Source: an uncultured delta proteobacterium
GTDB taxonomy: Bacteria; Desulfobacterota; Desulfuromonadia; Desulfuromonadales; JACZKF01
Reading direction: 5' to 3'
DNA: 64,000 nt
Assembly (NCBI GenBank): GCA_963816395.1
Contig: CAWFKQ010000007.1
Location: 387,738 to 451,737 of the forward strand
Below are positions 1 to 53,159 of this stretch, one piece after another. Position 1 is the stretch's first letter, and the number at the start of each line of letters is the position of its first letter. Position numbers and translations under genes: made by a program. The notes below the pieces were generated by a model. It did not search any database, was not told the DNA's origin, and saw only the letters and a program-made list of their open reading frames with translations.

Positions 1-2306
1 GCAGGCCACTCTGGTTGGTGGTGGTGTTCATGCAACTCTCCCGTAATCTCGATGACCGCCTGGCCGTTGGCGGGGATGTCGATCCCGGTGGCCGTGTCTT
101 CAATAATGAGGTTGGTGGCACTGCCGGCATTGCTCAGGGCCCAGGTGCCGCCGGATACCACGTTGGCACTGACAAAGCGCATGTTGGCTGCGGCGAGGCC
201 CAGATCGTCCAGGATCCGCACATCGTACAGGGGCACGGCGGTGGGGGTCGCGGGCACGGTGATGCGGTACTTGAACTGCTCGCCGATGGTGGCGCTCGCC
301 TGGCTATTCGCCTTCGCCAGCGGGCCGGGAGACTGGATCACCACCCGGGTGGGGTCCGCGGGAGCACCGGGCGGAGCGATGCCGTTGACGTACGGGTCAT
401 CGCTCTCTGCGGTGAGGCCGGCGGCGGTGAGGGTGGCCTGGTTGTCGACCGCGGTGCCGTTGGTGAGGGTCGATTTCAGGGTGATCTCGAACTCGATCAC
501 GAGCTCGCTGCCGACGGCGACGTTCAGAGGGGTGATATCGCCGCTGATTTCCAGCCGGCCACTGGCGGGATCAAAAGTGTATTTGGCGCCCGCCGGGGGA
601 GGCGTAACCATGGCGAACGTGGTCAGATCGAAGCGGTTCGGATCCAGCAGGTCGCTGATCGTGATCCCGTCAATCGTCTGGTCGACGTTGAAGAGGCGCA
701 GCCGGTAGCGCAGCCTGTCACCCGGAGCGGCGGTGACGGCCGGGTTGGCGCCACTGGTCAGGTTCTCGACCGTCTTCTGAAAGTAGTAGCCGGCCAGCGC
801 CGTCGTGATGGTTTCGCTGTCCTGAAAATCCGCTACGCCCGGTGTGCCGTCGGTAAGCGGGCCCTTGTCGTATTGGCGGCGGCTGGTAAGACTGCTGTCG
901 CCACTGAACCAGCGGGTAGCGCCGGCGACATTGGTCAGCGTTATGCCGTCTTTGCTGTCGCCGTCGAGCTGAGACTGGTAATTGATGATCAGGTGCTGAG
1001 AGGGTCCGACCTTGGCCGTGGGCGTATCCAGCAGGGTCAGGCTGAGCTGGCAGGTGGGCGCACCGCTATAGGTGACCGAGTAGTCGGTGCCCTGGGTCAG
1101 GTCCGAGACCAGGGTGCCGTCAGCCGCGGCGATCCGGGCGGTGACCCCGCCCGGCGCCGTGGTGGGGTCGTAGTCGCACATGCCGCCTTGGGGGCCGTCG
1201 GGGAGCTGGTCGAGGATCGTGGCGTTCCAGGCATCGCTGCCGCCGGTGTTCTCGACGTCGATGGTAAAGGCCGCCGGGACCCCCAGGTTCAGGGCCGTCT
1301 CACTGCTCGTCTTGTTGACGACGAGATTGGGCCCGACGATGGTCATCGGTGGCGTGATCCCATCCTGCCCGGGGAGGGGCTCATATTGCGTTCCGTTGAT
1401 GATCCTCCCCAACTCCCAATGGGCGGTGTTGATGAACTGCGTCCCCGGCACGTTCGCCGGGGTGTCATCGAGGACGACCGTAAGCTTGAGCACAACCTGA
1501 GAATTGGCCGGGATCCTGGCAAAGGACGCGTTGTCGACATAGGAGAAGACGAGGTGCTTGTTATCCCCCGAGTTGGCCAGTGAGCCCAGCGCGGTTGTGG
1601 TGCCGTCGCTGTTTTTCAGGTAGGCGGTATTGCTCAGGTAGGTGAGGTTCGCGCCCGTGGCGGTGAGATCGTCGGTGATTTCGATGTTGTACAGGTCGGC
1701 GGTGTCCGGGCTGCCGGAGTAGACGTAACCCGACGGCGTCAGCGTCGCCATGTCTGAAAAGGTGAGCGTGTAGGTGAAGGGCACGCCGATGGTGGCCGTG
1801 GTCCGGCCCGCGGGGTTCTCCTTATGGATTCCATCTACCGGTATAATAAATTCCTGGCAACTCGTGCTGATGTTGTTATATGAGCCGTTACTCCACCACA
1901 TCGAAAAGGTAGATTGAGTGGGGTCGTTACACGACATGTTGCCGTCGTAGAAAACGTTGTCGAAGACAATCAGATACGATGCATGATTGGGGAATTGGAA
2001 GTTAATGAGGGTAAATGGCAGTCCGCCCACAGACTGCGGAAAGTTCTTTATCGTGCAGTCCCGGTCGATCCCGAGCGTGCTGGGAAGCTGCGAAATATTG
2101 AGGGTATTGCCGTCAATCACGCCGCCTGGGTAATCGGAGCACATATCGCCCGCCGCCTGCGCGGAAGAGGCCGCGCCCAGCAACAGGGCGAAGAGGAGCA
2201 GCAACAGGCCACCTAACCTGATGCCGCGGGCTGAAAGGCCAAGAGCACCGCTGGCGGCGCTGGTCAGCAGGTTCCAGGTTTTCGACACGTTTCTCTTCTG
2301 CGGCAT
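1..2306 (-). CDS. Large secreted repeat-domain surface protein (DUF11 / conserved-repeat-domain-like adhesin), first 768 codons; C-terminus beyond left edge
   Basis: Own minus-strand translation from ATG at 2306: MPQKRNVSKTWNLLTSAASGALGLSARGIRLGGLLLLLFALLLGAASSAQAAG (Sec signal peptide). The frame then stays open to position 1, with reiterated N.ATLTA...SDDP...DPT..V repeat signatures. It is absent from the ORF track because it has no in-window stop. The + ORF 15..1583 is its antisense shadow. Confidence 0.75.
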   Translation of the reverse strand, partial: MPQKRNVSKTWNLLTSAASGALGLSARGIRLGGLLLLLFALLLGAASSAQAAGDMCSDYPGGVIDGNTLNISQLPSTLGIDRDCTIKNFPQSVGGLPFTLINFQFPNHASYLIVFDNVFYDGNMSCNDPTQSTFSMWWSNGSYNNISTSCQEFIIPVDGIHKENPAGRTTATIGVPFTYTLTFSDMATLTPSGYVYSGSPDTADLYNIEITDDLTATGANLTYLSNTAYLKNSDGTTTALGSLANSGDNKHLVFSYVDNASFARIPANSQVVLKLTVVLDDTPANVPGTQFINTAHWELGRIINGTQYEPLPGQDGITPPMTIVGPNLVVNKTSSETALNLGVPAAFTIDVENTGGSDAWNATILDQLPDGPQGGMCDYDPTTAPGGVTARIAAADGTLVSDLTQGTDYSVTYSGAPTCQLSLTLLDTPTAKVGPSQHLIINYQSQLDGDSKDGITLTNVAGATRWFSGDSSLTSRRQYDKGPLTDGTPGVADFQDSETITTALAGYYFQKTVENLTSGANPAVTAAPGDRLRYRLRLFNVDQTIDGITISDLLDPNRFDLTTFAMVTPPPAGAKYTFDPASGRLEISGDITPLNVAVGSELVIEFEITLKSTLTNGTAVDNQATLTAAGLTAESDDPYVNGIAPPGAPADPTRVVIQSPGPLAKANSQASATIGEQFKYRITVPATPTAVPLYDVRILDDLGLAAANMRFVSANVVSGGTWALSNAGSATNLIIEDTATGIDIPANGQAVIEITGELHEHHHQPEWP

Positions 2307-2390: not shown

Positions 2391-2578
2391 TGAAAACAAA
2401 AAACGCCCACTCTTCCGCCGAAGATGAGCGCTCTTGGAATATTCCACGATTGCCGGGGGCCCAAGATACATGACTCATCTCTTCGGCAACCCGGCTGTCC
2501 GCCTTCGCTTGTGGCTTCGGCGGACCCGTGGCTTTGCGTCACCAGATTTCTCTGGTTTTGCCCTTTCGGAGACCCTTT
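2391..2578 (-). promoter_or_regulatory. GEMM-I (c-di-GMP-I class) riboswitch, gene-proximal copy, aptamer plus intrinsic terminator
   Basis: Minus-strand sense: CCGAAAGGGCAAAACCAGAGAAAUCUGGUGACGCAAAGCCACGGGUC...AGCCGGGUUGCCGAAG (GAAA-capped P1 hairpin, ACGCAAAGCC junction). It is followed by GCGCUCAUCUUCGGCGGAAGAGUGGGCGUUUUUUGUUUU (2432-2391). Confidence 0.85.
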
Positions 2579-2616
2579 TGTTCAGTAACGATGGTGTTTA
2601 ATTAGGGTCGAATTCC

Positions 2617-2816
2617 AATAAAAAAGCGCCTTCTTCTGGCCGAAGATGAGCGCTCCTGGAGTACTCCTGAATTGCCGGGGCCCAAGATATGACTCACCTC
2701 TTCGGCAACCCGGCTATCCGTCTCAACCTGTAGCTCCACCTAAGCTTCGGTGGACAAGTCGACGGACCCGTGGCTTTGCGTCACCAGATTTCTCTGGTTT
2801 TGCCCTTTCGGAGATC
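2617..2816 (-). promoter_or_regulatory. GEMM-I (c-di-GMP-I class) riboswitch, distal copy, aptamer plus intrinsic terminator
   Basis: Same 5' aptamer half as the proximal copy (identical GGGCAAAACCAGAGAAAUCUGGUGACGCAAAGCCACGGGUC), a longer P2 arm and the same ...AGCCGGGUUGCCGAAG closing segment. Terminator AGCGCUCAUCUUCGGCCAGAAGAAGGCGCUUUUUUAUU at 2655-2617. Confidence 0.85.
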
Positions 2817-3262
2817 TTCCTTTGCAATGACCTGTGCAAGTCTTGTATGTCCCTCATAGGCACAAACCATTCCAGCAAACGCAGGGTCCTCCTGTTTGAC
2901 CGTAACACATGAGAATATTGCGGTTAAATGCTTTTTTGGAAGATTGCAAATGCGGGGAGCAGCCGCTTTGATCGACAGCAGGGTGACACGATGCGTCATT
3001 GGAAGCGGTTATTTTTCTTTTCTTAAAGAGAGGTGACGCGAATTGTCATCGAATGCAGTCTTTTCATGAAATGGGTATATAGGCAGGGGTTATTTACAGA
3101 GAGAGAAATGTTCAGCAAAAATTTAGCGCCGGGGATAATGGATGCGGAATGGACACGACCTGGCCGGGTAGCTCCGAACGGCAAAAGGAGGAGTGCGCGG
3201 ACAGGCAGCAGAAGGGAGCAGAGAAGGGAAAAGGGGCGAGTTTAGATCCTGCGGCAGCGAAA

Positions 3263-4822
3263 TCAAGTCACTGGCGCCGGGTTGAACAGCACCAGATCAT
3301 TGTGCAGGCCGAGCCGGTCGGCAGCTACCTGCCTGCGTCCGCTCGCCACCTGGAGAATCAACTGGAAAAGCTCCCAGCCCACCTCGGCGATGCTCGCTTC
3401 TCCCGTGGCGATGCGGCCGGCGTCGAGGTCGATGAGATCATGCCAGCGCAGGCTGAGAGCGGTGCGCGTGGCAACCTTGATGACGGGAGCCATCGCCAGC
3501 CCGTAGGGGGTGCCGCGGCCGGTGGTGAACACCTGCAGGTTGATGCCGGCGGCAAGTTGCAGCGTGCCGCAGACAAAATCGCTGGCCGGCGTTGCCGCGA
3601 AGACCAGCCCCTTGCGCCGCAGGCGTTCCCCGGGGCCTAGAACGTCGACGATCGTGGTGCTGCCGGACTTGACGATGGAACCCAGCGCCTTCTCCACGAT
3701 ATTGGCCAGTCCCCCGGCCTTGTTGCCCGGGGTCGGGTTGGCGCTGCGGTCCGCTTCCCCCGCCTGCAGATAGCGATCGTACCAGGCCATTTCCCGCAGC
3801 AGGGCCTGTCCCACCGATTCGTCGGCGGCCCGGGGGGTGAGCAGATAAATGGCATCCCGGACTTCCGTCACCTCCGAGAAGAGCACGGTGCCCCCGGCCC
3901 GGACGATGAGGTCCGCCGCGTAACCGACCGCGGGGTTCGCGGTGACCCCGGAGAAGGCATCGCTGCCGCCGCACTGCAGGCCGACAACCAGGTCGGAGGC
4001 CGGGCAGGTTTCACGGCGGCGCCGATTCAACTTTTCGAGCCGCCGCTCGGCCATCTCCATCATCGCCTCGGCCATGGCGCCAAAACCGTGGAAGGCTTCA
4101 TCCTGCAGGGTGAGGATCGGCGAGTCCGCAATCCCGTGGGCAACGCTTTGCCGGATGGTCGCCGGCACCAGCCGCTCCGGTTCCAGTTTTTCGCACCCCA
4201 GGCCGACGACCATCACCTCGCCACCCAGGTTGGGGTTGAGTGCCAGGTTCTGCAGGGTCCGGATCGGGACGATGGCGGCGGGAGCATTGATCGCCACCCC
4301 ACAGCCATAGGTGTGGTTAAGCGCGACTACGTCGTCGACGTTCGGATAGCGGGGGAGAAGTTCCTGCTTGATACGCCGGACCAGGTAATTCGCCACGCCG
4401 GCGACGCACTGCACGCTGGTGACGATGCCCAGCACGTTTTTGGTGCCGACACTACCGTCGGGGTTGCGATAGCCCTCGAAGGTGTAGCCTTCCAGGGGAG
4501 GAAGATCTGCCGGCTTTCGTGACGCGAGAGGGATGTCCTTGAGGGCCGGCGCCTCGGGCAACCCGACGAGGGATTCTTCCACCCAACTTCCGCGTGCGAT
4601 GGTTTTTACCGCCCGGCCGACAATTTCCCCGTAACGGATGATCGGAGCACCTTGCGGGATATCGCCAAGTGCCACTTTGTGGCCCTGGGGAACGTCCTGG
4701 CGCAAGACGGTATCATCATCCAATTTCGCTCCCGCTTTCAAGCCGTTGGCATTGACGACGATGGCAACGTTATCCAGTTCGTCGACTTTGATTAAAACTG
4801 CCGGTTCGTTAACCGCGTTCAT
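3263..4822 (-). CDS. garD: Galactarate dehydratase (UxaA/GarD family)
   Basis: ORF 3263..4996 trimmed to [24 protein letters not shown] (ATG 4822), which avoids overlap with tctA. Near-colinear by eye with E. coli GarD, including [42 protein letters not shown] and the C-terminal LFNPAPVT. Confidence 0.9.
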
Positions 4823-4905
4823 AGAATTACCTGGTTCTTGGGTCAAACTCCGCCAGCCCTGACTCATTCTTCCGTCATTGAACTGTACACGAAAAACCCC
4901 ACCGG

Positions 4906-6417
4906 TCATCCCTGGGAATCCCCCCGGCCATGGTTTCGGGACGACTTGACCGACGAATAGATTGAATAGCCGATGGAGAGCAGGATCAGCACCCACAGGA
5001 ACACCGCAATCGGGCTTTTCGTAAAGAAGATCGTCAAGGTGCCGAACGATTCAAGGGTTTTCACAAAATAGACCTCGGCCGACTTGCCGAGAATGAAACC
5101 GATGATCAGGGGGGCGATCTCGATGCCGATCTTCTGCGCCGCCCAGCCAAAGACGCCGAAGAGCAGCAAGGTCCAGACGTCGAACATTATGCCGTAATTG
5201 ATCGCATAGGCGCCGACGACGCACATCATGATGATGATCGGGTAGAGGATGTATTTCGGCACGGTGATGACCTTGGCGACGTACTTGATGGCAAAGAACA
5301 TGACCAGGAACATGACCAGGTTGCCGACCAGAAGGGACATCATGATGTGGTGCCAGATATCCAGGTTTTCACCGATAAACAGCGGTCCAACCTGGATCCC
5401 CTGGAGAGTGAAGGCCCCGATCAGCACGGCCGTGGTACTGTCTCCGGGGATGCCCAGAGACAGCAACGGGATGAGGGCGCCGCCGGTCAGACCGTTGTTT
5501 GAAGCTTCTGACGCGATAACCCCTTCGGGAACGCCGGTTCCCATTTTGGCGGGATCCCTGGAGAAGTTTTTGGCCTGGGTGTAGGACAATATCGACGCCG
5601 CGCTCCCGCCGATCCCGGGGAGCAGACCGATGAAGGTGCCGATGAAGCCCGACCGGAAGAGATTGATGATCTGACCCTTGAAGATCCCGAAGGAGAATTT
5701 TGCCCGGGCCGAAAGGTTCACGTCGGCGCATAAAGGCTCCTCCCGAACCCCCTTCTCCGCCTCCTCCAGGATCATCGCCAGACCGAAGAGGCCGATCAGC
5801 ACTGGCAGCAGGGAGAAGCCGTTTTCCAGGTAAGGCACCATGAAATCGAACATCAGCCGCGTCTTGCCGTTGCCGCCCACGGAGATATCGTAAGTGCCGA
5901 CCAGGCTCAGCCAGACCCCGAGCGCCCCGCTGAAAATGCCCATCAGCATATTTTTGGAAAGGGAGGCAATCACGGTCAGGGCGAAAAGGATAATCAGGAA
6001 CTTTTCAACGTAGGAAAACTTGATGGCGAAATCGGCCAGAAGCGGGGCGCAGAAAAGCAAAATGGCTGCACTCAACAGCCCCCCGAACAGGGAGGAGACA
6101 ATGCCGACCTTCAGGGCTTTTTCGCCTTCCCCCTTCTGGGTCATGGGATAGCCGTCGAAGGTGGTGGCAATCGAAGAGGGCGTGCCGGGGATGTTGAGCA
6201 GAATCGCCGGGACCAGGCCGCCGGAGATGCCACCGACGTACAGACCAAGCAGCAGGGCCAGTCCCAGGTTCAGGTCGAGGGAATAGGTCAGCGGCAGGCA
6301 GACGGCCACGGCCATGGTCGCCGTCATCCCGGGAATGGCACCGAAGATGATGCCGATAAGAACCCCGACCGAGACCAGCAGGATGGACATGGGGGAGAGA
6401 AGCGTCAGAAATTCCAT
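4906..6417 (-). CDS. tctA: Tripartite tricarboxylate transporter large permease (TctA family)
   Basis: 503-aa polytopic membrane protein with a TctA-like N-terminus ([14 protein letters not shown]...) and a [13 protein letters not shown] motif. Adjacent to tctB/tctC-like genes. Confidence 0.85.
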
Positions 6418-26791: not shown

Positions 26792-26879
26792 TGGTGCCCG
26801 GGACGGGGGTTGAACCCGTACGAGGTTACCCATCGAGGGATTTTAAGTCCCTTGCGTCTGCCAGTTCCGCCACCCGGGC
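26792..26879 (-). tRNA. tRNA-Leu (anticodon UAA), class II long variable arm, CCA encoded
   Basis: Minus strand GCCCGGGTGGCGGAACTGGCAGACGCAAGGGACTTAAAATCCCTCGATGGGTAACCTCGTACGGGTTCAACCCCCGTCCCGGGCACCA. It shows a 7-bp acceptor stem, anticodon loop CUUAAAA and a TTCAACC T-loop. Confidence 0.9.
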
Positions 26880-48936: not shown

Positions 48937-50994
48937 GTGAATTCGCTTAAAATCAAAATCCTCGGGTTGACCATTCTCATCTTCGGTTCTGCCGTCGGCC
49001 TGACCACCTGGCAGAACCTGCGGACACAGCACGCCATCATTTCCCAGGTAGCCTCCCAGAAGGCCCAGATACTCGGCGATACCATTCGCAACACCATCGT
49101 CATCAATATGGCCAACGGCCAGAACTCAGAAGTGGCCAACATTCTCGAGCGGATCAAAAAAGAACCAAGCATCGAATCGATCCGTATCTTCGACGAAACC
49201 GGACGCATCCTCGTTTCCGCCGATGCCGAGGAAATCGGCGACTTGATTCCCGCCGCCGATCTTCTGGCCTACCGCTCCGGCCAAAGCTTCTATCTCGGCA
49301 GCCGCCAGACGGAGGGCTATCACTGTGCCCTGGTCCCCATCGACAATGCCCCTCTCTGCCACCGCTGCCACGCGCAGGAAAAGCTTGTGCTGGGCATTCT
49401 CAACATTCATTTTTCCCAACATGAACTGCAGGCCCTGCAGAACCGCGGGCGGGAGGCAACCCTGCTTTCTTCGGCTGGTGTGCTGATTCTCCTCGTTCTG
49501 ACCGTCACCGGGTTCATCCTCTATTACGTTGACACCCCCATCCGCAAGGTGGTCGCCGCCATGAACCTGGTCGAGCAGGGCGATTTCAATCAGGCGCGGA
49601 TCGGGATCATCAGCTCGAATGAAATGGCACTGCTCGCTACCAAATTCAATCTCATGGTGGAACGCCTGCGCAACCTGATGAGGTCGACCGTATTGCACGA
49701 ACGGGAGATGGCAATCGCCCAGGAAAAGCTGGCCCACCACGACGAAATCCGCTGCATGAACGCCACCCTGGAGGAACGTCTCAGGGAAATCGAATTTCTC
49801 AATGTCACCCTCGAAGAAAGGATTGAGGAAATCGAAGAGGCGAATTTCAAGATAGCCGATCTGGCCAGCGATCTGGAGGCGAAAAACACCACTCTTGCTC
49901 AGGCGGTCAGCCGCCTGTCGGCTCTCTACAAGATGGGGCTGGCGCTCAATTCCACCATGGACATCGACCGATTGTTCGATCTGCTGCTGCGCAAGGCTAC
50001 GGAGACCCTGAACGCTCAGGTCGGCCATATCCTCCTACTCGACCGCGACAGCTGGAGCCTGAAGGTAGGTTCCCTGATCGGCTGGGCGGAAAGCACCGAT
50101 CCCACCAAACGCATCCCACTGCGCCCCGGCGGGGTTTCCCACTGGGTAATCGAAAACCGGGAGCCCCTGCTGATCAAAAAGATCGAGGAGGCGAAAGCGT
50201 TCAGTCGGCTCAGCCGCCTGGGGTATACCCGAGAGACGATCATCTGCGCGCCGCTGATGATTAAAGAAGAAGTCATCGGCACCCTGACCATGGCCAACCG
50301 GCGGGATGGCCTCTGCTTTACCAGTGATGATCTTGAACTCCTTACGACCATTGCCGCCCAGGCCAGTATCGCCATGAGAAATGTCCGCCTCTATGAAGAT
50401 CAGCAGTCCACCTATCTGAGCACGGTCCAGGCGCTGGTTTCCACCATTGAGGCAAGCGATGCCTATACGCGGGGTCATTCGGAGAGGGTGACCCGCTACA
50501 GCCTGGCCCTGGCCCGACACCTGGGGCTGGCTCCGGAATCGGTGAAAACGCTCGAGGAGGCTGCGGTCCTTCACGACATCGGCAAAATCGGTATCGAAAC
50601 GAGTCTTCTGCACAAGGAGGGGCGACTTTCGGACGACGATATCGACGTGCTGCATCAGCATCCTTCGATCGGCGTACACATTCTCGAACCGATCCACTTT
50701 CTGAAGGACGTGCGGAAAATCATCGAACAGCATCACGAGCGCTATGACGGCAAGGGTTACCCGCATGGCCTGGCCGGGGAAGTGATTCTGCCCGAGGCGA
50801 GAATTCTGGCGGTCGCCGATGCCTATGACGCAATGACCTCCGATCGCCCTTACCGCTCGGCGCTCACGCAATATACAGCGATGCAGGAGATCCGGGAGAA
50901 TGCCGGCAGTCAGTTCGACCCGCAGGTGGCCCAGGCCCTCTTTGACATGTGGCAGATGGGCACCCTGGACGAGGTCAGGAAGATGGAGGGATGA
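48937..50994 (+). CDS. Membrane sensor with periplasmic CXXCH-containing domain, HAMP, coiled coil, GAF and HD-GYP (c-di-GMP phosphodiesterase) domains
   Basis: Two TM helices flank a ~150-aa periplasmic region containing PLCHRCH (nt 49357-49371). C-terminus has ..GHSERV..LHDIGKIGI..HHERYDGKGYPHGL.. (HD-GYP). GTG start. Confidence 0.85.
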   Translation: MNSLKIKILGLTILIFGSAVGLTTWQNLRTQHAIISQVASQKAQILGDTIRNTIVINMANGQNSEVANILERIKKEPSIESIRIFDETGRILVSADAEEIGDLIPAADLLAYRSGQSFYLGSRQTEGYHCALVPIDNAPLCHRCHAQEKLVLGILNIHFSQHELQALQNRGREATLLSSAGVLILLVLTVTGFILYYVDTPIRKVVAAMNLVEQGDFNQARIGIISSNEMALLATKFNLMVERLRNLMRSTVLHEREMAIAQEKLAHHDEIRCMNATLEERLREIEFLNVTLEERIEEIEEANFKIADLASDLEAKNTTLAQAVSRLSALYKMGLALNSTMDIDRLFDLLLRKATETLNAQVGHILLLDRDSWSLKVGSLIGWAESTDPTKRIPLRPGGVSHWVIENREPLLIKKIEEAKAFSRLSRLGYTRETIICAPLMIKEEVIGTLTMANRRDGLCFTSDDLELLTTIAAQASIAMRNVRLYEDQQSTYLSTVQALVSTIEASDAYTRGHSERVTRYSLALARHLGLAPESVKTLEEAAVLHDIGKIGIETSLLHKEGRLSDDDIDVLHQHPSIGVHILEPIHFLKDVRKIIEQHHERYDGKGYPHGLAGEVILPEARILAVADAYDAMTSDRPYRSALTQYTAMQEIRENAGSQFDPQVAQALFDMWQMGTLDEVRKMEG

Positions 50995-53159
50995 AAAGAC
51001 CGCGGCTGCCGGATCTGCAGCGGATGTCTCTGCTCCGTCGGATTCTCCTTCCCTTTTTCCTCATTCTGATCCTGGTCGGCACGGTTGCCACAATCGGCAC
51101 CGTTTCCTATATGACCAGCTTTCTGGCCCGGGATGTCAATGAACGCCTGGAAGCTTTCCAACAGATCGCCTACCGGGATATAAAAAAACAGGAAATCCTC
51201 CTCGTCACCTATAGCAGCCTGCTGGAGTACATGCAGGCACTCGCCGGACCTCATATCGACGACCAGACCGCGGGCGCGCTACAGGACCAGATGGTCAATT
51301 CACTGCGTGAATCGCGGATTTCGGCAATCTATTATTCTCCTGCCAGCTTCGACAATATCCCTTATGAATCTCTGCATAGCCTGCTTGAGCAGGCGGATCG
51401 CAGCGGCCGCCCCAGGTTCCGCCTGCTCGACGACATGGGATCAACCCCCATTCTGGCCGTTGCCGCCCCGGCCGGCCGGAATCCGGCAGCCAGGGGGATA
51501 GTTGTCCTGCAGACGCCGTTTGACGGCAATTTCCTGCGGCACCTGACCGGCGGCCTCAGAGTGGTCCCGCATCTGCTCACCATGGAAGGGAAACCGTTGG
51601 AGGTCGGCGAGGACTATGTTCCACCGCCCGCCCTCAACCAGGCGGAGCTCTCTTCCGTAATTTCCGGACACCGCCTGTTCAAGATGGCCGGGTTTCCCCT
51701 GCCCCATAAATTTCTGTATCAGGCCGTTCCCCTGGGAACCACCGACATGGTGATCGCCGTGGCGGAGGCACCGATGACCGATCTCGGTGGCACCACCGAA
51801 GCCATAATCCTGTATTCGCTGCTGATCTTTTTCTTCGCCCTGCTCCTCGGCAGCTTTCTCTATTACCGCCTGATACGGCAGATCACCGCCCCGATGGAAG
51901 AGATCCTGCAGGCTACCCGGGCGATCAGCGGGGGGGATCTCGATTACCGCCTGCCGGATATTGCCGATGCAGAGATGGGACGAATCGCCGCTTCCTTCAA
52001 CGCCATGATGGAGCGGCTGAAATTAGTTCACGAGGAAAATCTGGCCCAGGAAACAGCTCTCGCTCTAGCCCGGGAGGAGGTCAGACATAAGAAAATTCTT
52101 GAACAGAAAAACAGCGAGGTCGAGGCGGCCAACAAGGAACTGAAAGCGAACCTGTCTGAACTTTCGGCTCTTTTTCAGCTTAATGAGGCGACTATCTCGA
52201 CCCTGGATATCAATCTGCTCCTGGAGCGGATGATAGAGATGCTGCAGAAGATGCTGCCGCACTGCAACCTGGCTCTGCTCCTGTACCAACCAGGAGCCGA
52301 GGAGTTGGAGGTGCAAAGAACGGCGGGACTTGCCCCGGCGCTGCTGAAGGAAATGGATTTACGGCTGGACCGCGGTTTGCTCGGTCAGGCGGCGAGAAAG
52401 CAGGAAATGATTTACCTCAGCGACTTGCAGGTGGATAACCCTCGTTTCGATTATCAAGGCAAATCGCTTCCCGATGGTTCCCTGGTATGCACACCAATGG
52501 TGGTCAAGAAAAAACTCGCCGGACTTCTCCTGCTGAGCAGGGAGAAACCCCACGCCTTTACCAGCGGCGAGCTGAGGCTGATACAGGCGGTCGGCAATCA
52601 GGCCGCGATCGGCATTGAAAACGCCCGTTTATATGAACAAACCCGCAGTCTTTCCAATACCGACGAGTTGACCAGCCTCGCCAATCGCCGCTTCTTCCTT
52701 GAGGTTCTCAAGCGGGAATTGGCGCAGGCCCAGCGTTTCAGCTCCCAGTTCAGCCTGATCATGATCGATATTGATCATTTCAAGCGTTATAACGACTGCC
52801 ACGGCCATCTCTGCGGCGACATGGCATTGAAGACCGTGGCCGACCTTCTGCTGCAGAATACCCGCGGCATCGACCTGGTTGCCCGCTTCGGCGGCGAGGA
52901 ATTCGTCATCCTGCTTCCCAAGACCAGCAAGAGTGGGGCGGTGCTGGCAGCCGAGAAACTGCGGCAGCGCATTGCCGAGACCGTTTTCCCGGGCGCCGAC
53001 CGCAGTCAGCCGGGGGGAGGACTGACCATCTCCCTGGGAGTGGCGGCCTTTCCCGTCGATAGCCGCGAAGAGTACGAGCTGATGGATCTGGCCGACCGCG
53101 CCCTCTACGAGGCCAAGGAAGAGGGTCGTGACCGCACGGTGGCCTGGAAATCGCTCTAA
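50991..53159 (+). CDS. Membrane sensor diguanylate cyclase (periplasmic domain, HAMP, GAF, GGDEF with I-site)
   Basis: Trimmed to MKRPRLPDLQ (ATG 50991, ATGA overlap with the upstream stop). ..RGIDLVARFGGEEFVILLP.. (RxxD I-site five residues before GGEEF). Confidence 0.9.
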   Translation: MKRPRLPDLQRMSLLRRILLPFFLILILVGTVATIGTVSYMTSFLARDVNERLEAFQQIAYRDIKKQEILLVTYSSLLEYMQALAGPHIDDQTAGALQDQMVNSLRESRISAIYYSPASFDNIPYESLHSLLEQADRSGRPRFRLLDDMGSTPILAVAAPAGRNPAARGIVVLQTPFDGNFLRHLTGGLRVVPHLLTMEGKPLEVGEDYVPPPALNQAELSSVISGHRLFKMAGFPLPHKFLYQAVPLGTTDMVIAVAEAPMTDLGGTTEAIILYSLLIFFFALLLGSFLYYRLIRQITAPMEEILQATRAISGGDLDYRLPDIADAEMGRIAASFNAMMERLKLVHEENLAQETALALAREEVRHKKILEQKNSEVEAANKELKANLSELSALFQLNEATISTLDINLLLERMIEMLQKMLPHCNLALLLYQPGAEELEVQRTAGLAPALLKEMDLRLDRGLLGQAARKQEMIYLSDLQVDNPRFDYQGKSLPDGSLVCTPMVVKKKLAGLLLLSREKPHAFTSGELRLIQAVGNQAAIGIENARLYEQTRSLSNTDELTSLANRRFFLEVLKRELAQAQRFSSQFSLIMIDIDHFKRYNDCHGHLCGDMALKTVADLLLQNTRGIDLVARFGGEEFVILLPKTSKSGAVLAAEKLRQRIAETVFPGADRSQPGGGLTISLGVAAFPVDSREEYELMDLADRALYEAKEEGRDRTVAWKSL

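Follow-up and report, generated by a model that had tools for sequence, protein, structure and literature searches.

The locus

The window, by which we mean the whole 64-kb stretch of DNA analysed here, contains a minus-strand leader that carries two complete class I c-di-GMP (GEMM-I) riboswitches in series. The leader stands before the 5' part of a gene that runs off the window. The features, in the order in which they would be transcribed, are as follows.

2860-2874, minus strand: candidate sigma-54-type promoter (putative -24 element TGGAAT, -12 element GTGC)
2700-2813, minus strand: riboswitch 1 aptamer; P1 extends to about 2816/2696; fold -49 kcal/mol, z -4.1
2691-2706, minus strand: riboswitch 1 switching strand A3' (GCCGAAGAGGUGAGUC), made up of the P1 3' strand and the C92 equivalent
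2654-2688, minus strand: riboswitch 1 B-C element; B5' AUCUUGG 2688-2682, B3' GCCCCGGC 2681-2674, C3' CCAGGA 2659-2654
2620-2653, minus strand: riboswitch 1 terminator; D arm 2653-2639, E arm 2638-2626, U6 2625-2620
2481-2571, minus strand: riboswitch 2 aptamer; P1 extends to about 2574/2477; fold -40.5 kcal/mol, z -3.2, with P1 in the minimum-free-energy (MFE) structure
2472-2487, minus strand: riboswitch 2 switching strand A3' (GCCGAAGAGAUGAGUC)
2432-2467, minus strand: riboswitch 2 B-C element; B5' 2467-2461, B3' 2460-2452, C3' CCAAGA 2437-2432
2393-2431, minus strand: riboswitch 2 terminator; D arm 2431-2417, E arm 2416-2404, U6 2403-2398, then G and U4
1-2306, minus strand: regulated gene, 5' part (768 codons, running off the window); start at ATG 2306 or GTG 2288

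The two tandem units span 2816-2620 and 2574-2393, with no gene between them; the open reading frames on the riboswitch strand in 2306-2999 reach only 61-72 aa and overlap the RNA structures. The gene product begins with a signal peptide, followed by DUF11 repeat and isopeptide-forming (RrgB-like) domains. This agrees with a preliminary description of the locus, in which the gene was called a giant secreted adhesin-like gene, as far as secretion is concerned; its size, by contrast, is read from homologues only, among which that of locus L048 reaches at least 2276 aa (with nine DUF11 repeats) and that of L046 at least 1570 aa. The same description had placed the start at ATG 2306. This ATG does open the 768-codon frame, but the start may instead be GTG 2288, because in the closest homologues a GAGAGGAAA-type ribosome-binding site precedes the GTG in the alignment.

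The window also encodes the HD-GYP/GGDEF pair reported before (HD-GYP at 48937-50994 and GGDEF at 50949-53159, both on the plus strand). These genes lie 46 kb from the leader, and nothing links them specifically to it.

Two GEMM-I aptamers in tandem

When the whole 64 kb was scanned with Rfam cmscan, two GEMM-I aptamers were found on the minus strand, each aligned over the full model length (1-80). Aptamer 1 (2813-2700) scores 66.0 bits (E 2.2e-13) and aptamer 2 (2571-2481) scores 68.6 bits (E 4.1e-14), in both cases with the family RF03167. The sole other Rfam match in the window is a tRNA. Given these scores and E values, and the lack of any other such match in the window, the two GEMM-I-clan matches are far beyond chance. 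A permissive Rfam scan of 2300-2900 added nothing credible.

Both copies fold into the GEMM-I architecture: P1, a GNRA-capped hairpin closed by a G-C/C-G pair, the ACGCAAAGCC junction, a second long hairpin and the closing GC-CG..G 3' strand. The sequences from which two tandem GEMM-I aptamers had originally been recognized (CCAGA-GAAA-UCUGG, GACGCAAAGCC and AGCCGGGUUGCCGAAG) are present in both copies on the minus strand, and the centroid folds include P1. Pairwise alignment of 2830-2600 with 2590-2375 gives a mean column identity of 83%, in keeping with tandem copies of one unit, and the two agree letter for letter over some 55 nt in the 5' half of the aptamer, a stretch that takes in P1, the first hairpin and the junction. 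The difference in P2 arm length that had been remarked upon is a 23-nt insertion in the distal arm of P2, the second hairpin, of copy 1; it cleanly extends the distal hairpin, at a place where GEMM-I tolerates length variation.

Binding pocket and family label

In the model alignment, with Vc2 numbering, the pocket of copy 1 is formed by G2804 (G20 equivalent), A2777 (A47) and C2705 (C92), and that of copy 2 by G2562, A2535 and C2486, respectively. As the three equivalents are G, A and C, the pocket is the canonical c-di-GMP triplet, and the G that the preliminary description had read at the position-20 equivalent is confirmed in both copies; the A that marks the cGAMP-binding GEMM-Ib subclass at this position occurs in neither. 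G20, A47 and C92 are established ligand contacts, and Vc2 with G20 binds c-di-GMP with pM affinity and cGAMP at about 10 uM (PMC6140456). Similarly, in Desulfobacca aptamers a G here strongly favours c-di-GMP, while an A shifts binding towards c-AMP-GMP (PMC9481103).

The family label is at first sight at odds with this picture, as the top Rfam family for both copies is RF03167 (c-di-GMP-I-GGC; gathering score 59, passed by both) and not RF01051. We take the 'GGC' variant (name: Weinberg et al. 2017) to have an altered pocket, with G at the A47 equivalent, as in the model consensus ACGCGAAgCc. This G stands at consensus position 37 of RF03167, where both copies have A; the copies therefore lack the pocket of the variant, and they depart from RF03167 exactly where its consensus differs from canonical GEMM-I. 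The scan reports only the best member of clan CL00126, so that the copies' own RF01051 score is hidden by clan competition; three further same-clan matches lie above their own gathering scores within 2300-2900. RF03167 is also the best model for 18 of the 19 related aptamers with A47 that come from the Geobacter/Desulfuromonas group and the metagenome loci, and for some A47-bearing Firmicutes aptamers (L061 and L026). Since aptamers with A47 from both sources score best there, we regard the RF03167 assignment as a scoring effect that is not diagnostic. As an annotation pitfall this goes beyond the present locus: clan competition in Rfam labels GEMM-I RNAs with a canonical pocket as 'GGC', which could mislead ligand predictions. 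A covariance model of our own, R1, was built from 20 aptamers of other phyla that score best on RF01051; with this training set, which had been fetched with a pattern derived from the present aptamer, copy 1 scores 61.8 bits and copy 2 scores 69.6 bits. R1 matches exactly these two sites in the 64 kb and nothing else.

Could the aptamers nevertheless sense another ligand, either as true members of the 'GGC' class or as promiscuous or cGAMP-responsive aptamers like other GEMM-I of the Geobacter lineage? The better score of RF03167 over RF01051, in the copies and in all but one of the relatives, speaks for this, as does a lineage known for cGAMP signalling (PMC6456294). However, the label loses its force once A47-bearing aptamers such as L061 and L026 are seen to share it, and at position 20 the copies carry G where the cGAMP subclass has A. 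Moreover, the A47 equivalent is A in both copies, and a regex search of the window and the fetched loci for G47-type variants found none: A is present in 149 of 149 matched related aptamers, although the retrieval pattern behind most of these already required it. We thus consider a different ligand quite unlikely. Nothing here points away from c-di-GMP as the probable ligand, although sequence cannot prove specificity.

A terminator behind each aptamer

An interrupted G+C-rich hairpin followed by a U-tract lies 82-85 nt after the 3' strand of each aptamer. Terminator 1 (GCGCUCAUCUUC-GGCCA-GAAGAAGGCGC, then U6 at 2625-2620) has a folding energy of -12 kcal/mol (z -2.6), and terminator 2 (GCGCUCAUCUUC-GGCG-GAAGAGUGGGCG, then U6GU4, with the U6 at 2403-2398) one of -13.6 kcal/mol (z -3.2). 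Both are stable G+C-rich hairpins directly before a U-tract, as intrinsic terminators are. A strict consensus scan for terminators found none, because the stems are interrupted by internal loops; both were confirmed by folding instead. The separate terminator that had been proposed for each aptamer is hence present, and with both terminators lying before the gene, the leader is predicted to impose two serial termination decisions, again as proposed.

A conserved putative antiterminator

Both the C92 equivalent and the 3' half of P1 lie in the switching strand A3' (GCCGAAGAG(G/A)UGAG). This strand is complementary to D, the 5' arm and loop of the terminator (CUCAUCUUCGGC). Inside this A3':D helix nests a short helix between B5' (AUCUUGG) and C3' (CCAGGA or CCAAGA), the inner hairpin of the antiterminator, in which a U.G pair of copy 1 is replaced by U-A in copy 2. 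The complete antiterminator hairpins have energies of -26.8 kcal/mol (2706-2639) and -26.7 kcal/mol (2487-2417), which is about twice the stability of the terminators. For the A3':D duplex by itself, the values are -19.0 kcal/mol in unit 1, against -8.7 +/- 2.6 for shuffled sequences, and -20.1 kcal/mol in unit 2, against -7.2 +/- 2.6.

This complementarity is conserved. The window and seven genome loci together supply 15 units, and in all 15 the energy of the A3':D duplex lies between -13 and -20.6 kcal/mol, with z values of -2.9 to -6.3 against shuffled D. Seven more units from metagenome loci have identical sequences at the A3' and D positions, and the platform design is kept in all 22 related units examined. 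We also folded transcripts that end just before the 3' arm of the terminator, i.e., at the decision point. The antiterminator is the MFE structure there in nine of ten close units, with the aptamer hairpins intact and P1 open; in unit 1 of the window it lies 1.6 kcal/mol above the MFE.

In an alignment of the ten close units, the antiterminator pairs are 97% formed, against at most 54% in slid registers, and the terminator is 95% paired. All of the variation in the terminator is on the E side, where five of its 12 pairs vary one-sidedly, and D is invariant; this is the pattern expected of a strand that has two partners. Pair counts in the same alignment show no two-sided covariation for either the antiterminator or the terminator. 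For the antiterminator, this follows from the fact that 11 of the 12 A3':D pairs never vary. The case for the antiterminator is thus made by conserved complementarity and energy models, which argue for it as a predicted structure.

When the aptamer is folded with P1 forced, or when the tail is folded alone, the terminator still forms, so that aptamer and terminator are, qualitatively, compatible. By computation, both units accordingly have the arrangement of a Cd1-type OFF switch, namely a terminator that can coexist with the aptamer and an antiterminator composed of the aptamer 3' strand and the terminator 5' arm. A pairing of GAAGAU, from the 5' flank of unit 1, with D appears in the MFE structure of that unit; as it is absent from unit 2, it was set aside as coincidental.

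Homologous loci and a candidate promoter

A permissive pattern search of a genome collection, which matched GEMM-I of many phyla, returned at least 13 related units from the Geobacter/Desulfuromonas group and from deltaproteobacterial MAGs. In five of five loci with a homologue of the regulated gene, a GEMM-I unit lies directly upstream of that gene.

L048: Geomonas MAG; 48.6% protein identity; tandem pair (the closest named homologous locus among the matches listed)
L046: Desulfuromonadales MAG; 41% identity; single unit
L121, L122 and L123: metagenome loci; 82%, 84% and 72% protein identity, respectively

L121, L122 and L123 share the same order: a riboswitch (a tandem pair in L121), a gene for an OmpA/Pal-like lipoprotein, a second riboswitch and the DUF11 gene. 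No OmpA/Pal-like lipoprotein gene was found in the 64-kb window. Because this gene sits between the riboswitches in the metagenome loci and is absent here, the tandem arrangement may reflect loss of a gene between two copies.

About 45 nt upstream of the first riboswitch, the window and the same three metagenome loci share the motif TGGAAY-N5-GTGC, while the surrounding sequence is not conserved; the internal riboswitches have no such motif in front of them. The window contains a single match (2874-2860) where 0.13 would be expected, a comparison to be read in the light of the motif having been defined after the alignment was seen. A consensus scan for sigma-70 promoters on the minus strand found none, and the GAFTGA motif of enhancer-binding proteins was not found in the 64-kb window. 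Judged from sequence, a sigma-54 promoter is likely to drive the leader. With the sigma-54-like motif at 2874-2860, the transcription start would therefore be near 2848, upstream of both units.

Sign of regulation

On the evidence of the aptamer-compatible terminators and the antiterminators, we read both units as OFF switches. We think it probable, from the folding models above, that the leader contains two independently acting GEMM-I riboswitches with a canonical pocket, each of which switches transcription off when ligand is bound. Without ligand, P1 would be weak, and A3' (GCCGAAGAG.UGAG, including the C92 equivalent) would pair with the 5' arm of the terminator (CUCAUCUUCGGC). The A3':D helix would stack on the inner hairpin (AUCUUGG:CCARGA) to form one long antiterminator, and RNA polymerase would read through. 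Binding of c-di-GMP would lock P1 and the C92 equivalent in the aptamer, D would be free to pair with E, and transcription would stop at the U-tract. Since both checkpoints would have to be passed, read-through would be the product of the two unliganded probabilities, and the tandem would be expected to give a tighter and steeper ('pseudo-cooperative') repression at high c-di-GMP.

The preliminary description had left the sign of regulation open; the anatomy of the platform indicates OFF.

An element able to pair with the aptamer

One part of the platform does not fit easily into this scheme. The entire 3' half of the aptamer, which we call A (GCCGGGUUGCCGAAGAG), finds its complement in element B (AUCUUGG-GCCCCGGC), with GCCGGG.. 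facing ..CCCGGC. A hairpin of A with B, together with the terminator, is the MFE structure of the full-length RNA in both units. It appears in stepwise folds once B has been transcribed, and in unit 1 of the window it is the MFE conformer at the decision point. The CCGGC of B is invariant in ten of ten close units, which suggests that the A:B pairing is itself selected. More distant relatives (e.g., L089 and L058) have a different anti-aptamer segment in the same place, GCUUUUGCC, which is complementary to GGCAAAA. If the A:B hairpin were to form first in the absence of ligand, it could free D and lead to ligand-free termination. Alternatively, it may form only after the decision has been made and then insulate identical neighbouring units from each other. 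Pairing of B with the 3' arm of the terminator, as an ON-type antitermination, was also considered; it is weak and is not conserved between the two copies, and it was ruled out.

Alternative readings of the platform

The A:B hairpin is the starting point for the opposite sign, in which it is the default unliganded fold that allows the terminator to form, and ligand prevents termination, as in the cGAMP riboswitches of Geobacter pilM and pgcA. Its place in the full-length MFE of both units, from the transcription of B onward, and the invariance of its CCGGC would both be accounted for; it also resembles the pilM-type terminator in sequestering the C92 equivalent (PMC9262584), and the GEMM-Ib riboswitches of Geobacter are ON switches (PMC6456294). 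Nevertheless, the A:B hairpin has no U-tract, the folded aptamer leaves the terminator forming with no blocking structure found, and the only read-through conformer that we found needs a free aptamer 3' strand, i.e., the unliganded state. An ON switch is hence unlikely in our judgement. It is mainly because the role of the A:B hairpin does not fit that we call the OFF reading probable and nothing stronger, and that we leave the ON reading a small chance.

It is also conceivable that one unit only is functional and that the other, e.g., copy 1, is a decaying duplicate or a by-product of rearrangement. In copy 1, P2 is extended in an atypical way and the terminator is the weaker of the two (-12 kcal/mol); copy 1 is also the one unit among the ten whose MFE structure at the decision point is not the antiterminator. 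L122 and L123, moreover, have a single unit before the gene. On the other hand, neither copy has lost any pocket or junction nucleotide, and each retains an intact P1, D arm and U-tract; the insertion extends the distal P2 hairpin cleanly where length variation is tolerated, and tandem pairs are also present in L121, L048, L008 and L058. We therefore regard a single working unit as very unlikely and keep to two OFF switches acting in series as our preferred reading.

Implications

c-di-GMP is usually expected to promote adhesion; an adhesin-like gene that it represses, as predicted here, runs counter to this expectation. On the OFF reading, rising c-di-GMP would turn off a very large DUF11/isopeptide surface protein, and the two checkpoints in series would make the threshold sharp; this hints that this 'adhesin' belongs to a low-c-di-GMP lifestyle. 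If the switches are indeed OFF, their presence in a lineage with cGAMP ON switches would also make the two types usable as a simple pair of reporters that discriminate between the two signals.

These elements can be combined into a wider proposal, which we put forward as possible but doubtful. Throughout the Geobacter/Desulfuromonas group, the conserved platform would define c-di-GMP OFF switches as the counterpart of the GEMM-Ib riboswitches, which cGAMP turns ON, so that one fold would serve two dinucleotides in the control of surface proteins with opposite sign. The operon would be sigma-54-driven and would consist of riboswitch, pal-like gene, riboswitch and DUF11 gene; losing the pal-like gene from between two riboswitch copies, and not local duplication, would have produced the tandem in the window. 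The invariant B would possibly be a built-in insulator that takes up the reactive strands again after the decision and so keeps identical neighbouring units from cross-pairing.

Comparison with known systems

The pair in the window is correctly identified and is an ordinary case of the tandem riboswitch type that occurs most often; it leaves the understanding of how riboswitches work unchanged. The Bc3-5 triplet of Bacillus thuringiensis is another example of tandem c-di-GMP-I riboswitches. No class of tandem riboswitch is more numerous than the c-di-GMP-I doublets: the catalogue of Sherlock et al. 2022 (PMC9481103) lists 347 of them, along with 12 triplets. Geobacter also has tandem GEMM-I (PMC6456294), and tandem c-di-GMP riboswitches are enriched in Thermodesulfobacteriota (PMC12452182). 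The known c-di-GMP-I tandems likewise have two units of aptamer and terminator per leader, from which a steeper, more digital response to one ligand is expected; the units in the window differ in being predicted OFF switches, in a Geobacter-like lineage, before the gene of a DUF11 surface protein. Our literature search found no paper linking GEMM-I with DUF11. What the locus adds is modest: a predicted OFF polarity, a conserved three-part platform with an anti-aptamer element, a likely sigma-54 promoter, a scenario of gene loss, and the pitfall in Rfam labelling, where RF03167 is the best model for both copies and yet has a consensus G at the A47 equivalent against the A in the window.

A close mechanistic parallel to the predicted switch is offered by Cd1 of Clostridioides difficile, an OFF riboswitch whose antiterminator captures the ligand-pairing nucleotide (PMC9262584). 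As predicted for the window, the terminator of Cd1 can coexist with the folded aptamer, its antiterminator is made of the aptamer 3' strand and the terminator 5' arm, and a long platform precedes the decision point. Unlike the pair described here, Cd1 is a single unit from a different phylum, with an unrelated platform sequence; the window, in turn, has the extra conserved element B that is able to pair with the aptamer.

The GEMM-Ib cGAMP riboswitches of Geobacter, known as a tandem pair before omcAHG/GSU2885 (PMC6456294) and from pilM (PMC9262584), probably belong to the same lineage as the window, judging from the 48.6% protein identity to the Geomonas locus L048. They share with it the aptamer fold, the tandem arrangement, intrinsic terminators and the control of extracellular or surface proteins. 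In contrast, they have A20, bind cGAMP and act as ON switches with a terminator that overlaps the aptamer, whereas the units in the window have G20 and a terminator that is separate from the aptamer.

Origin of the tandem arrangement

In the three nearest homologous loci (L121, L122 and L123, all metagenomic), the riboswitch copies are separated by an OmpA/Pal-like lipoprotein gene:
L121, 2072-2608, OmpA/Pal-like lipoprotein gene between riboswitch copies
L122, 504-1031, the same
L123, 2128-2676, the same

Such a gene likewise adjoins the GEMM-I units of L080 and of L046, a Desulfuromonadales MAG locus. No OmpA/Pal-like lipoprotein gene was found in the window; hence, the tandem seen here may be derived through loss of this gene from between the riboswitch copies.

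Leader, promoter and start codon

In both units of the window, the entire 3' half of the aptamer is complementary to element B, the platform segment between aptamer and terminator:
2674-2688, minus strand, element B of unit 1, pairing with 2714-2691
2452-2467, minus strand, element B of unit 2, pairing with 2495-2472

The CCGGC of element B is unchanged in all ten close units of the alignment, and the full-length MFE structure contains the hairpin formed by element B and the aptamer 3' half.

About 45 nt 5' of the first riboswitch, the window and its three nearest homologous loci share a candidate sigma-54 type motif, TGGAAY-N5-GTGC, with -24/-12 spacing (alignment A2):
window, 2860-2874, minus strand
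L121, about 1490-1505; L122 and L123, corresponding positions

The motif was not found 5' of the internal riboswitches, and the window encodes no GAFTGA activator motif.

The start of the regulated gene is ambiguous within 2286-2306 (minus strand), being either ATG 2306, which has no obvious ribosome-binding site, or GTG 2288, with which the apparent GTG start of the nearest homologues aligns, a purine-rich site preceding it. The genes upstream of the leader lack synteny with the homologous loci; in L121, the upstream neighbour is an HTH/ImmA-like gene.
3263-6417, minus strand, altronate/galactarate dehydratase-like and TctA tricarboxylate-transporter subunit genes

Elsewhere in the window, at 26792-26879 on the minus strand, lies a tRNA-Leu (anticodon UAA).

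Cyclic di-GMP genes and family assignment

Two further genes, adjacent and overlapping, encode one protein predicted to break down c-di-GMP and one predicted to make it, and the sensor modules of the two match:
48937-50994, plus strand, HAMP-GAF-HD-GYP protein
50949-53159, plus strand, HAMP-GAF-GGDEF (GGEEF) protein

Under Rfam clan competition, GEMM-I aptamers with A47 and a canonical pocket are assigned to the variant family RF03167 with scores above its gathering threshold of 59. These include the window aptamers (2481-2813), those of L046, L008, L058, L089, L080, L092 and L121-L123, and also those of the Firmicutes loci L061 and L026. Automatic annotation would give canonical-pocket aptamers the wrong, variant label.

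Comparison with other tandem aptamers

RF01051 aptamers lie end to end in two MAGs:
L044 (Peptococcaceae), 4948-5220, three aptamers
L012 (Anaerolinea), 1437-1622, two aptamers

These aptamers abut, the space between them being too short for an expression platform. Theirs is a tandem architecture unlike that of the window, where a platform follows each aptamer.
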